A stretch of 64,000 nt of DNA from Eubacteriales bacterium (GTDB lineage Bacteria > Bacillota > Clostridia > Lachnospirales > Lachnospiraceae), in contig JAUNGT010000011.1 in NCBI GenBank assembly GCA_030524455.1, positions 5,052-69,051 of the forward strand, written 5' to 3'. The notes beneath the pieces were generated by a model. It was not told the origin of the DNA and searched no databases. It saw nothing but the letters and a program-made list of their open reading frames with translations. Positions 3,993-62,913 of the stretch are shown piece after piece (within the stretch, counting starts at the first letter, position 1; every line of letters begins with the position of its first letter). Both the position numbers and the translations under genes were made by a program.

Positions 3993-4191
3993 CAAACAGT
4001 TCAGCCAGCCGGGAGCGAACGGACAAAATCGTGCTTGCACGAATTTTGGCCGGTTGCTCCTGGCTGAGGGAGCGCCCGATGATGAGCAAAGTTAGCCGCG
4101 CAGCGGCGGAAAGCGCGTTATGCGCGAAAGACGAACAAGTTCGAAAGACGAACAAGTTCGTCTGCCCGAATGGCGCGGGCTGAACGGTTAC
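3993..4191. mobile_element. MITE-like non-autonomous element, copy 1
   Basis: Ends caaacagttcagcc / ggctgaacggttac (imperfect 14-bp inverted repeat). Reverse complement aligns with 61705-61868 (8 mismatches over the shared 126-nt part). Long internal palindrome. Confidence 0.8.
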
Positions 4192-4336: not shown

Positions 4337-5005
4337 ATGCGAATTTTGATTGTGGAGGATGAGGCCGCGCTGGCGGAAGCCTTGTCCGAGATTCTGCGGC
4401 AGAACGGCTATCTCTCCGATACCGCCGCAAACGGCACGGACGGGCTGGAGTTTGCCCGTATCGGCATTTATGACCTGATCCTTCTGGATATCATGCTGCC
4501 CGGCATGGACGGTCTTTCCGTCCTGAAGGCCCTGCGCCGCGAAAAAATCCATACGCCCGTCATCCTGCTCACCGCCCGCTCGGAGGTCTCGGACATCATC
4601 GCCGGCCTGGACGCGGGCAGCGACGATTATCTTCCCAAGCCCTTTTCCACCGCGGAGCTGCTGGCGCGCATCCGCGCCATTTCCCGGCGCGGCGGGCGGT
4701 ATCTGGAGGATAGCTGCTGCTTTGAGGACCTGTCCCTGCAAAAGGGCTCCATGGAGCTTTCCTGCGGCAGCCGCACGATCCGTCTGGGCTTAAAGGAGTT
4801 TCAGCTGATGGAGCTTTTTCTGCGCAATCCCCACCAGGTGCTGCCCAAGGATCTGATTATCGGAAAAATCTGGGGCCTGGACACTGCCGCCGACTACAAC
4901 AACGTGGAGGTCTATGTCTCCTTCCTGCGCCAGAAGCTGCAGGCGCTGGGCTCCCGGGCTTCCATCCGCACCAACCGCGGCGTAGGCTACAGCCTGGAGG
5001 CATGA
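4337..5005 (+). CDS. OmpR-family response regulator
   Basis: MRILIVEDE, LLDIMLPGMDG, DDYLPKPF, winged-helix end TNRGVGYSL. Confidence 0.95.
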   Translation: MRILIVEDEAALAEALSEILRQNGYLSDTAANGTDGLEFARIGIYDLILLDIMLPGMDGLSVLKALRREKIHTPVILLTARSEVSDIIAGLDAGSDDYLPKPFSTAELLARIRAISRRGGRYLEDSCCFEDLSLQKGSMELSCGSRTIRLGLKEFQLMELFLRNPHQVLPKDLIIGKIWGLDTAADYNNVEVYVSFLRQKLQALGSRASIRTNRGVGYSLEA

Positions 5006-20218: not shown

Positions 20219-20260
20219 GAGCGTGTTTGAAAAATGCTTTCTGCCGGGCTGAACTGTTAC
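20216..20260. repeat. Solo MITE terminal repeat within a short remnant
   Basis: Exact ggctgaactgttac at 20247-20260, identical to the right end of the 61705-61868 element; no partner end nearby. Confidence 0.6.
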
Positions 20261-24378: not shown

Positions 24379-24441
24379 CCCTGCAACTCCTTTCCTGGCG
24401 CAATAAGAATAGCATCCTTTATGACCTTTGGCCCTCGTATC

Positions 24442-24470
24442 ATTTTATAATGTTATACCGCTTACGTCAA
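24442..24470 (-). promoter_or_regulatory. Putative sigma-A promoter of deoB
   Basis: TTGACG-N17-TAAAAT on the minus strand. Confidence 0.65.
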
Positions 24471-46685: not shown

Positions 46686-47978
46686 TTATCTCTCCATCCT
46701 TCTCATCACAAAATCAATCGCCTCAAGATACCCGTTCAGCCCGTGTCCGTAAATCTGCCGGTCGCAGGCCGGAGCCGTCACGGACACCCGGCGGAAGGGC
46801 TCGCGCCGCATGATATTGGAGATATGCACCTCCACCTTCGGCATGGGCACGCTCGCCAGCGCGTCCCGGATCGCATAGCTGTAATGCGTGTAAGCGCCGG
46901 GGTTGATGATAATCGCTTCGGTATGATCGAAGTAAGCCTGCTGGATCCGGTCGATGATCTCGCCCTCGTGATTGGACTGGAACACGGTGATGGCTGCCCG
47001 GCTCTCGAGCCCCTTCTGCGCGATCAGGTTCAGCAGGTAATTGTAGTCCTGCGTGCCGTAAACGCCCTTCTCGCGGATCCCCAAAAAGTTCAGATTGGGG
47101 CCGTTGATCACCAGCAGCTTACGCAGCGGGCGGACGGGACTGTCCGGCAGCCGGTTTTCCGCCGTCCGGCCGCTGTCCAAAGCTTCCGGTACCTGTCCTG
47201 CGGCCGCTGCGGTCACGCTGCTTTCCTGCGGCACACGATTTTCCTGCGGCACGCCATCTCCCTGCGGCACATAATTTCCCTGCATCATGCCGTTTTCCTG
47301 CGGCACGATATTCCCCTGCGCCGCGCCGCTCTCCCGTGTCAGGCCGGTTTCCCGCTGCAGCTCCCCGGTTGTCCGCTCAAACCGCCGAAAGCCGTTTGCG
47401 CCGAAGGGTCTGCTGTGCTGGAAGCCGGGCCGAAGGCCGTCCTCCCGGTTCTCTGCCGTGCGGTAGGGAGGGCGCAGGCCTCTCTCGATCTCAAAGAGCA
47501 TCTGTCCGAAGGGCTTGTTGTCCACATCCACGATCAGATCCGCAGCCGCCTCGTAGGCTTCCTTCCTCTGCTCCAGCATTGTGCAGATGCGTCCGAGCAG
47601 ATCCTCGTTGCCCAAAAGCAGGGGACGCGTATCATCCTCCTTGAGCCGGTCGTAAAGCGTCTCCGGCTTTGCGCGCAGGTAAACCACCTTGCCGATCTGC
47701 TTTAAGAGAGCTCTGTTTTCCTCCTGCAGGGGCGTCCCGCCGCCTGCGGAAATCACCTGGTTCTTCGCCGTCTCCTTCAGCTCCCTCAAAACCTCCGTCT
47801 CCATCCGTCTGAATGCCTCTTCCCCGTCCTGCTCAAAAATCTCCCGGATGGACTTGCCCTGCTTTTTCTCGATCAGCTTATCCGTATCTGTCATCTGCCG
47901 TTTGAGGCGATAGGACAGCTTCACCGCCACGCTGCTTTTTCCGCATCCCATAAATCCGATCAGTACCACATTTCCCAC
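46686..47978 (-). CDS. Shikimate kinase - type II 3-dehydroquinate dehydratase fusion (AroK-linker-AroQ)
   Basis: Likely GTG start 47978. N-terminal LIGFMGCGKS, GEEAFR, SAGGG, RPLL; C-terminal VINGPNLN, SNHEGEIID, NPGAYTHYS, EVHISN; one uninterrupted frame. Confidence 0.92.
   Translation of the reverse strand: MGNVVLIGFMGCGKSSVAVKLSYRLKRQMTDTDKLIEKKQGKSIREIFEQDGEEAFRRMETEVLRELKETAKNQVISAGGGTPLQEENRALLKQIGKVVYLRAKPETLYDRLKEDDTRPLLLGNEDLLGRICTMLEQRKEAYEAAADLIVDVDNKPFGQMLFEIERGLRPPYRTAENREDGLRPGFQHSRPFGANGFRRFERTTGELQRETGLTRESGAAQGNIVPQENGMMQGNYVPQGDGVPQENRVPQESSVTAAAAGQVPEALDSGRTAENRLPDSPVRPLRKLLVINGPNLNFLGIREKGVYGTQDYNYLLNLIAQKGLESRAAITVFQSNHEGEIIDRIQQAYFDHTEAIIINPGAYTHYSYAIRDALASVPMPKVEVHISNIMRREPFRRVSVTAPACDRQIYGHGLNGYLEAIDFVMRRMER
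47223..47330. repeat. Six imperfect 18-bp tandem repeats in the AroK-AroQ linker
   Basis: Core (t/c)cctgcggcac plus 6 variable nt, six units; encodes VPQ(E/G)xx-type hexapeptides. Confidence 0.85.
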
Positions 47979-61428: not shown

Positions 61429-61665
61429 TCACGGTACATCCACCATGATAATATCCGGCCCGATCTGCTTGATGTCCTTATAAAAGATCGCGTATTCCGT
61501 GTCGCAGCCAAACAGACACTTCCAGTTTTTGCCGCCCACCCCCGGCACGATAATCTTCCGGATCGTCCCGGTGCATTCGTCGAACTCAAAATCCGTCACA
61601 TGCCCCATTTTTCTGCAATCCCGAAGATTCACGACCTCTTTGCTTTTCAGTTCGGAAAAAAGCAT
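61429..61665 (-). CDS. ylmC: YlmC/YmxH-family PRC-barrel sporulation protein
   Basis: Start refined to ATG 61665; FSELKSKEVVNLRDCRKMG, IKQIGPDIIMV. Confidence 0.9.
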   Translation of the reverse strand: MLFSELKSKEVVNLRDCRKMGHVTDFEFDECTGTIRKIIVPGVGGKNWKCLFGCDTEYAIFYKDIKQIGPDIIMVDVP

Positions 61666-61704
61666 GCCTGCACCCTCCCCAGACAAAAATGTTACATTTA
61701 TATC

Positions 61705-61868
61705 GTAACAATTCAGCCCGCGCCATTCGCAAAGCCGCGCTAACGCGCTTCCCGCCGCTTCGCGGCTACCTTTGCTCATAATCAGGCGCTCCCTCAGCCA
61801 GGAGCAACCAGCCAAAATTCGTGCAAGCACGATTTTGGCCGTTCACTCCCGGCTGGCTGAACTGTTAC
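61705..61868. mobile_element. MITE-like element, copy 2, with a probable 8-bp target-site duplication
   Basis: Ends gtaacaattcagcc / ggctgaactgttac (13/14 inverted match); flanks tttatatc / tttatagc (7/8). Confidence 0.85.
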
Positions 61869-61875
61869 TTTATAG

Positions 61876-62913
61876 CTATGCAGCCCGGCGGCGGTTGGTG
61901 CGTTTCCGGAGAAGCGTTCCCTTCCAGCAAAACAGCGGGGACAAAAGCCGCACGAGAGGCGCCCAGGACAGGAGCAGAACAAGCAGCGCGCTGAGCAGCA
62001 CCGCCGCCCGGATATCATTTTCAATAAAGGAAAAAAGCCTGATTTTGCTGAACAGCTTCACCAAGAAACCGTGCAGCAGATAGACCGGCATCGTGTTGGC
62101 CCCGATCCGGGATACCAGAGGAAGCCGGCTGCCGGGCATCCACAGGAGAAAAAAGCCAAGCCACACGAGAGCCGCCAGCACGCCCGCCGCCCGGATTCCC
62201 AGGCTGTAATCCCCTTTCTCGTAGGAAACAGAGCCGTAGAGCCAGACCGATTTGATCTCCTCCGCGTAACCGGCCACCAGACATACCACAAAAACCGTAG
62301 CGGCCAGCGCCAAAAGACGGGCCGCCCGCCGCCCGGACAGGGAACGCCGGCGCCGCAGGCCGGCCGCCTGCCGGTAGTAAACTCCCATCAGAAAATACGG
62401 GAAAAATTCCACAATCCGGGATACGGACAGATAATAGCCCGCCTTATCGTCAAAGCCGATCAAAAGCCCCGCGCCAAAGGACGCTGCCAGAAAGAAAAGC
62501 TTTTTCTTCCAGCTCATTTCCTCCCCCGACACCAGAGGCAGTACCAGGTTCCACACAATCAGCGCAAACAGATACCACAAAAGCCAGTAGGGCGTCGTAT
62601 ACTGCACATCCGCATCCTTTTCCAGGACAAGGTTGGCAAACAAAAGATACAGCGTCTGGAACACCAGATAGGGATAAATCATGTGGCTGCGGATCCGCTC
62701 CGGCCTGTAACGCGCAAACACGCCGGTCACGAACGCAAACAGCGGCATATGCAGGGAATAAATGATCAGATACAATGTCCGGCCGCCCGGATTTTTGCCC
62801 ATGCACAGCTCCAGCATATGTCCCAGCACCACCGAAAAAATCAGCAGGCACTTCAAATTATCCATCCGGTAATCCCGGCCGCCCTCCGGCTTTTTCTCAC
62901 AGAGAACTTCCAT
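61876..62913 (-). CDS. Acyltransferase family 3 (membrane O-acetyltransferase, YcfT/OafA-like)
   Basis: RDYRMDNLKCLLIFSVVLGH, IYSLHMPLF, WYL, FFPYFLMG, IGANTMPVYLLH; about 10 TMs. Confidence 0.92.
   Translation of the reverse strand: MEVLCEKKPEGGRDYRMDNLKCLLIFSVVLGHMLELCMGKNPGGRTLYLIIYSLHMPLFAFVTGVFARYRPERIRSHMIYPYLVFQTLYLLFANLVLEKDADVQYTTPYWLLWYLFALIVWNLVLPLVSGEEMSWKKKLFFLAASFGAGLLIGFDDKAGYYLSVSRIVEFFPYFLMGVYYRQAAGLRRRRSLSGRRAARLLALAATVFVVCLVAGYAEEIKSVWLYGSVSYEKGDYSLGIRAAGVLAALVWLGFFLLWMPGSRLPLVSRIGANTMPVYLLHGFLVKLFSKIRLFSFIENDIRAAVLLSALLVLLLSWAPLVRLLSPLFCWKGTLLRKRTNRRRAA

Follow-up and report, generated by a model that had tools for sequence, protein, structure and literature searches.

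The window analysed here, a stretch of 64,000 nt corresponding to C28:5052-69051 of a 3.27-Mb, 88-contig genome with 55% G+C (G000), contains two copies of a short element bounded by terminal inverted repeats (Table 1). Copy 1 is flanked by two divergently transcribed genes, an efflux/HlyD-like gene on the minus strand and, on the plus strand, a response-regulator gene (4337-5005), and occupies the intergenic region that separates them. The top strand of copy 2 is the minus strand of the window and reads GTAACAGTTCAGCC...GGCTGAATTGTTAC; two minus-strand genes, both in the same sense as the element, border this copy: an acyltransferase gene (61876-62913), which faces it with its stop, and ylmC/ymxH (61429-61665), which faces it with its start. 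Copy 2 almost fills the gap, with 8 bp remaining from the stop and 39 bp to the ylmC start. An earlier note, made from the sequence alone, had described 3993-4191 and 61705-61868 as inverted homologues with 8 mismatches. A repeat search of the window fits that description: the arms at 3995-4120 and 61741-61866 form an inverted pair of 126 nt with 94% complementarity, the sole strong long-range inverted pair reported. The repeat search also returned an 18-bp periodic direct repeat at 47213-47327 (five units, 65-77% alike) that is probably a coding repeat.

Ends of the GTAACAGTTCAGCC type were present on both copies, in agreement with the inverted-repeat boundaries assigned to them previously. 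With up to one mismatch allowed, the end 12-mer AACAGTTCAGCC has five occurrences in the window, compared to 0.28 expected; these correspond to the four element ends plus a solo end (20247-20258). In copy 1, which reads cAAACAGTTCAGCC...GGCTGAACGGTTAC, the outermost two bases (the first two of cAAACAGTTCAGCC) are degenerate. The long palindrome, for which a stem of roughly 30 bp had been proposed, is real; in both copies its arms pair over ∼27 bp, and the resulting hairpin is capped by GTGCTTGCAC, with the loop GUGCUUGCAC. The 17-bp tandem units of copy 1 are housed in the extra hairpin module of the 182- and 207-bp variants. The RNA of the whole element has a minimum free energy of -90.6 kcal/mol (z = -7.5). 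Scanning for promoters and terminators around copy 2 revealed no promoter-like site, and the one trivial hairpin detected is the tip of P2. The flanks of copy 2, TTTATATC and TTTATAGC, match at 7 of 8 positions, consistent with the near-perfect 8-bp flanking duplication that the note had reported for this copy. No recognizable target duplication was found in the flanks of copy 1.

Table 1 Coordinates of the two element copies, their parts and related loci. Positions are those of the window unless a contig is named.
Feature	Position	Strand	Sequence or remark
MITE copy 1	3993..4191	+	199 bp: 182-bp variant plus 17-bp tandem duplication; from sequence reading and repeat search
Copy 1, left terminal inverted repeat	3993..4006	+	cAAACAGTTCAGCC
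Copy 1, right terminal inverted repeat	4178..4191	+	GGCTGAACGGTTAC
Copy 1, long hairpin P2	4007..4065	+	loop GTGCTTGCAC
Copy 1, two tandem 17-bp units	4126-4142, 4143-4159	+	GAAAGACGAACAAGTTC; read from sequence
MITE copy 2	61705..61868	-	164 bp, commonest class; from sequence reading and model R1 (190.7 bits)
Copy 2, left terminal inverted repeat	61855..61868	-	GTAACAGTTCAGCC; doubles as 5' strand of helix P1
Copy 2, right terminal inverted repeat	61705..61718	-	GGCTGAATTGTTAC on minus strand; doubles as 3' strand of P1
Copy 2, target-site duplication, first half	61697..61704	.	TTTATATC; register confirmed genome-wide
Copy 2, target-site duplication, second half	61869..61876	.	TTTATAGC; overlaps acyltransferase stop codon
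Solo end	20245..20260	-	GTAACAGTTCAGCCCG; 16 nt identical to right-end type; no element body attached
Canonical Clostridiales-1 copies, G000	C83:39218-39389, C71:34864-35035, C39:16148-16319, C58:15804-15961		RF01699 match
Mini-derivatives, G000	C36:17373-17402, C33:6966-6995, C69:1252, C53:17620, C44:205128-205175		
Copies with adjoining partial left end	G000 C4:40873-41063, C61:21909-22095, C38:38107-38294, C38:42509-42695; G230 L110 3057-3100		

When the 3.27-Mb genome was searched with blastn, about 110 loci were detected, as anticipated from the earlier suggestion of many copies genome-wide. The terminal inverted repeats GTAACAGTTCAGCC and GGCTGAACTGTTAC stand at element spacing in 59 end pairs, and a further 74 ends are solo or truncated. 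By size, the copies fall into classes of 164 (the most frequent), 182, 189 and 207 bp; these lengths are below the ∼300 bp taken as the upper limit for MITEs, and there is no transposase gene inside. Several copies coincide with contig ends and the contigs of a second assembly of this organism are interrupted within both window copies, behavior that is typical of a dispersed repeat. One pair of ends 3.1 kb apart (C44:126773-129895) was considered as an autonomous element and rejected, as housekeeping genes lie between its ends. The genome also possesses mini-derivatives of 30-50 nt that are hardly more than two ends (e.g., GTAACCGTTCAGCCAGCCAGGAGTGAACGGTTAC). In several full copies, as well as in a complete insertion sequence (IS) of genome G230 described below, the 8-bp duplication is directly followed by a partial left end of another element, which suggests that insertion is preferred directly beside a resident end; mirror-image cases were not noticed among these copies.

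For the 53 complete copies of this genome, the left and right flanks exhibited 48% identity compared to 30% in permuted pairs (z = 8.3), the permutation control removing composition effects, and the agreement was confined to the 8-bp duplication register. At least five of the eight flank positions match in 24 of the 53 copies, whereas 3.8 were expected; the distribution is bimodal and only one duplication is perfect, so the duplications are real but old in the window's genome. Those that are still recognizable differ at 25% of positions. Genome G173 (Bariatricus sp. SGI.154, another genus) has exact duplications at all nine of its near-identical copies, seven of 8 bp and two of 9-10 bp, all at AT-rich sites, and perfect duplications were also observed at three of four copies in G145 and at least two of seven in G022. 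With regard to the proposed comparison with empty sites in related strains, exact-protein look-ups and inspection of the congener loci yielded no true empty-site allele: the one other assembly of the organism has both insertions, with contigs that break inside both; the proteins flanking the two insertions are singletons in the protein collection; and none of the 19 congeners has an element upstream of ylmC, but the synteny there differs.

No IS66-family transposase is encoded in the window's contig, in line with the previously noted lack of a transposase in the window, and no intact homologue was found in the window's own genome. The sole PF03050 match of that genome (C83:12517-12789) covers only a C-terminal fragment, lies in a low-GC island and is not accompanied by matching ends; it was set aside as unrelated. 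The partner postulated in the note, a DDE transposase with the same ends and 8-bp duplications, was identified in other genera and belongs to the IS66 family, single-ORF type; elements with these ends are present in G173, G230 and G133, and none is intact in the window's genome. A 1729-bp contig of G173 (C75), which terminates precisely with GGCTGAACTGTTAC, codes for a protein of 487 aa. This protein has matches to PF03050 (DDE_Tnp_IS66; 73.4 bits) and to DUF6444; its score of 149.5 bits against the NCBIfam IS66 transposase model NF033517 is below the cut-off of 180, and it is therefore a divergent IS66 member. The contig has no left end, probably because of an assembly break, and a second G173 locus has an identical end ∼390 bp upstream of a truncated paralogue. 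The nearest homologue, with 62% identity and one in-frame TAG, is found in G230 (G230:C5), where it is part of the complete IS of 1617 bp, with ends GTTACAGTTCAGCC and GGCTGAACTGTAAC and a perfect 8-bp duplication (AAGAAAGG), and G133 (G133:C18) has a 626-bp internally deleted derivative with the duplication CATGCGTT. The left ends of full IS copies carry a local hairpin, CAGTTCAGCC-loop-GGCTGAACTG, that resembles the 30-50-nt mini-derivatives. Elsewhere in G173 (C1:199110-199922; L104), an ORF joins the DUF6444 N-terminal part of an IS66 transposase in frame to a Cas1 domain (PF01867, 210 bits); an IS remnant probably adjoins a cas1 gene here or interrupts it.

The similarity between the small element and the IS is limited to the 14-nt ends; their interiors are not alike. 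The consensus ends begin GTAAC and thus possess the IS66-type GTAA start; IS66-family inverted repeats begin GTAA and are accompanied by 8-bp direct repeats (PMC11946415). For ISDge4, from the single-ORF ISBst12 group, the published ends are GTAACTGCTCAGCA and the repeat is 8 bp long (PMC12898284); GTAACAGTTCAGCC matches this end at 11 of 14 positions. The element resembles the ISBst12 group in its GTAA ends and 8-bp direct repeats, and its full-length relatives with identical ends encode a PF03050 transposase as IS66 elements do; it differs in having no transposase, in its length of only 164-207 bp and in its unrelated interior. From the shared ends and duplications we infer that the element would have been mobilized in trans by an IS66-family DDE transposase.

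The window gave no match in an Rfam scan at gathering thresholds. In E-value mode, copy 2 aligned over its full length and on its top strand with RF01699, the Clostridiales-1 RNA, at 35.8 bits (E 1.5e-6; gathering cut-off 48), and copy 1 scored 28.7 bits at window positions 4000-4170 (C28:9051-9221). Genome-wide, RF01699 provided 70 matches, of which four are canonical copies at 105-137 bits and the rest are the IS66-ended element at 24-49 bits; one of the ∼66 IS66-ended copies reaches the 48-bit threshold (48.8 bits), and both window copies are below it. The alignment of copy 2 retains P1, the GUGCUUGCAC-capped long hairpin and the AUGAGCA/UGCGAAU internal-loop helix, and it misses a 34-nt hairpin. 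A tandem G-A (kink-turn-like) arrangement is possible for the AUGAGCA/UGCGAAU loop. The element shares with RF01699 a multi-stem architecture, the closing helix P1, the GUGCUUGCAC-capped hairpin, the internal loop, the strand and the taxa (gut Lachnospiraceae), with four canonical copies in the same genome. It is unlike RF01699 in that its P1 is built from IS66-type ends, in that the 34-nt 3'-proximal hairpin, the fourth stem of the model's four-stem architecture, is missing, and in its 8-bp duplications, compared to 6-8 bp with different 20-nt ends for the canonical copies. Judged by sequence and alignment, the core of the element appears to be a diverged form of the Clostridiales-1 RNA motif, a sub-threshold relative. 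The designation as an unnamed MITE family is thus correct with regard to the MITE and needs amendment with regard to the name, as the core has this relative in Rfam. A match to an ncRNA family, which the earlier note had set against its own reading, was indeed found (RF01699, 35.8 bits) and complements the MITE reading without displacing it. Overall, that reading is supported: every testable part of it held, and the family looks immobile in this genome. The motif was described by Weinberg et al. 2010 with no function given and mobility unmentioned (PMC2864571), and full-text searches of one paper library gave no article in which Clostridiales-1 is linked to a mobile element.

Canonical Clostridiales-1 copies were examined in the same manner. 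RF01699 is matched at E ≤1e-12 in 82 of 201 genera, often up to the maximum number of candidates scored for a genome, and the gene neighborhoods of the four canonical G000 copies have no shared neighbor. For near-identical canonical copies in three genomes (G170, G096 and G080; L302-L321; 105-154 bits when taken together with G000), the unit extends ∼25-30 nt past the Rfam model, and this extension is a right-hand inverted repeat, outside the model, that matches the first 20 nt. The canonical end types TGATRCCAGGGTCAAAAGG and TGGTTACAGTGTCAAAAC are imperfect 20-nt inverted repeats with 13-16 of 20 positions matching, and exact 6-8-bp direct repeats flank canonical units of 185-196 bp in 16 of 19 copies. 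The canonical copies are therefore apparently MITE-like as well, with different ends. The same structured core is therefore found between two kinds of end, the IS66-type ends and the canonical 20-nt ends. A canonical-type solo end (e.g., ATGATACGAGGGCCAAAGGTCATAAAGG) is present in the window at about 24412-24443 (minus strand), just upstream of a gene starting MKRIFLIVLDSVG that, by eye, we take to be phosphopentomutase-like, and other solo ends of this type lie just upstream of genes at C11:58310-58330 and C21:11479-11503 of G000. At G022:C15:64165-64629 (L087), an IS66-type copy interrupts a canonical Clostridiales-1 element within its first bases; the TGATA start of the canonical element is part of the duplication TGTTGATA, and one family is therefore nested in the other.

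A covariance model (R1) built from 28 copies of the window's genome found matches in 46 of 301 genera of Lachnospiraceae (one genome per genus), with scores that often exceeded 100 bits; for many of the genomes, the number of scored candidates was at its cap. The exact 26-mer GCGAATGGCGCGGGCTGAACTGTTAC is present in at least 115 stretches of named genomes; among the matches listed, the named genera are mostly Lachnospiraceae, and those listed are Mediterraneibacter, Dorea, Roseburia, Agathobacter, Acetatifactor, Bariatricus, Lachnospira and Lachnoclostridium. The occurrence of the element within the window's own genus is patchy. A head-to-tail array of four ∼160-bp elements was observed at G033:C3:77376-78020 (L039/L055), with overlapping inverted repeats (GGGCTGAACTGTTAACAGTTCGCC) and neither spacer nor duplication between units.

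The six-helix fold covaries across genera. In an alignment of 27 sequences that represent about 25 genera, double-sided compensatory changes affect 46 of the 57 pairs, and all six helices covary, including P1, the inverted-repeat pair, with the single-stranded motifs staying fixed. Paired cells amounted to 94.2% in these sequences, compared to 71% when shuffled and 31-43% with partners slid, where fitting of the cross-genus alignment to the model inflates the pairing and the slid controls share the bias. Within the window's genome, 13 of the 57 predicted pairs are compensated, 11 of them in the long stem. The two strands are not equivalent: stem mismatches in the genome copies are G-U in 59 cases and A-C in 11 (51 and 14 across genera), and in 54 of 57 copies it is the top strand that gives the more stable fold. 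Where the two neighboring genes are co-directional, the copy has their sense in 24 cases and the opposite one in 7 (p = 0.003), and 14 copies lie in divergent and 2 in convergent intergenic regions, all according to crude ORF calls. Divergence from the consensus reaches 16-20% in the outermost six bases per end and 11-12% in the long P2 stem; the inner P1 (1-1.5%), the hairpin tip (2.6%) and the core (3.4%) have changed far less. Decay has thus affected the parts needed for transposition and spared those by which the fold is defined.

These properties bear on the view that the element is a purely selfish IS66-type MITE whose fold has no host or RNA function. According to this proposal, the conserved core would stem from recent bursts of a few master copies and from gene conversion, and the hairpins would act only at the DNA level, e.g., in binding of transposase or a host factor. 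Near-identical bursts do occur, as seen in G173, and MITE cores frequently look structured. Moreover, gene conversion spares the center of a repeat more than its edges and would mimic the decay gradient, so that the slow decay of the core could reflect gene conversion rather than selection. A cruciform or a protein-binding site would be strand-symmetric, however, and neither the excess of G-U mismatches nor the greater stability of the top strand is expected from a strand-symmetric explanation at the DNA level. The compensation of pairs across genera around fixed single-stranded motifs, the preference for sense orientation and the identical core between two different end kinds also speak against the proposal, and we regard it as unlikely, though worth serious consideration.

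Far less probable as the whole explanation is a non-mobile, multi-copy Clostridiales-1 sRNA gene, for which the inverted repeats would be only P1 and the likeness of the flanks would arise from chance or target composition. The full-length, same-strand alignment with RF01699, the covariation of P1 as an RNA helix and the typing of the family as an sRNA gene in Rfam (PMC2864571) agree with such a gene, but the exact direct repeats around nine of nine G173 copies do not, and composition effects are excluded by the permutation control. The same 14-nt ends also bound IS66-family transposase genes with 8-bp duplications, solo ends and deletion derivatives are found among the ∼110 loci, and copy 2 has no promoter-like site around it. 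We give almost no credence to a REP/BIME-like or IS200/IS605-type element moved by a tyrosine HUH transposase (RAYT/TnpA) via single-stranded hairpins, which would fit a strongly hairpinned, strand-asymmetric, intergenic repeat of high copy number, but insertion by such systems leaves no target duplication, and their hairpins are subterminal, in place of terminal inverted repeats, whereas 8-bp duplications and ends equal to those of DDE IS66-family elements are found here.

The explanation that we favor, and hold to be quite probable as a whole, is that of an IS66-type MITE, a non-autonomous DNA transposon of ∼164 bp, with a Clostridiales-1-like core that is a fossil in this genome and is presumably kept as an RNA module. 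A single-ORF IS66-family (ISBst12-like) transposase acting in trans would bind the two 14-bp GTAACAGTTCAGCC-type ends and insert the element at AT-rich sites by an 8-bp staggered cut, which would account for the 8-bp duplication; the anatomy of the copies bears these steps out. The ∼136-nt module between the ends, not derived from the IS interior, folds together with the P1 repeats into six helices and appears to represent a diverged Clostridiales-1 RNA structure. With no intact transposase and with decayed outermost end bases and duplications, the ∼110 loci would be fossils, and mobility in the window's genome thus appears to be historical. The long stem changes by compensatory substitutions, and the inner P1, the hairpin tip and the core remain near-invariant. 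Most copies are located just upstream of host genes and in the same sense. Co-transcription, which the G-U excess and the sense bias support indirectly, and selection on the transcribed fold as a cis-acting RNA module are most likely; the selectively kept structured RNA might serve, e.g., as a stabilizer, a processing site or a protein-binding site.

A broader and more tentative version of this explanation, which we consider possible but somewhat doubtful, is that Clostridiales-1 is a mobile functional RNA module carried as a passenger in at least two transposition systems (one with IS66-type ends and 8-bp duplications, the other with ∼20-nt TGATRCCAGGGTCAAAAGG ends and 6-8-bp duplications) and that, when transcribed with host genes, it alters the fate of their mRNAs or is bound by a global RNA-binding protein. 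Each of the tens or hundreds of copies that a genome may contain, in many Lachnospiraceae genera, would then be kept by selection. Correia elements of Neisseria, ERIC/IRU of enterobacteria, RUP and BOX of pneumococcus and bcr1 of the Bacillus cereus group are structured MITEs and intergenic repeats that function as RNA upon co-transcription. The element described here is likewise small, high-copy, intergenic, bounded by inverted repeats and predicted to fold stably in transcripts; its ends, duplications (TA for Correia) and transposases differ, it has no sequence relation to these repeats, and the covariation across about 25 genera sets it apart from them. By analogy, the comparison suggests what the role of the element may be.

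Clostridiales-1 has been on record since 2010 as a common, well-covarying RNA of gut bacteria with unknown function. The MITE nature of the variant, and apparently of the canonical copies too, would give this RNA an origin and explain its lack of a fixed gene neighborhood. These results suggest that the unexplained Clostridiales-1 RNA is mobile-element cargo. In practical terms, Rfam annotation at the curated threshold would miss the element, which also breaks short-read assemblies of Lachnospiraceae and can produce false N-terminal extensions of genes such as ylmC. An internal ORF of the element (SD-like GAGGGAG plus ATG, in frame with ylmC in copy 2) was considered as coding and rejected because the G018 copy has a stop and the tandem G033 copies differ by indels and frame shifts, i.e., the ORF is not conserved. 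N-terminal extensions of ylmC homologues in other species showed no relation to the element. In the window, the internal ATG (61429-61830, minus strand) leads a naive ORF call to assign 133 rather than 78 aa to ylmC, and this in-frame start probably gives rise to erroneous N-terminal extensions in annotations.
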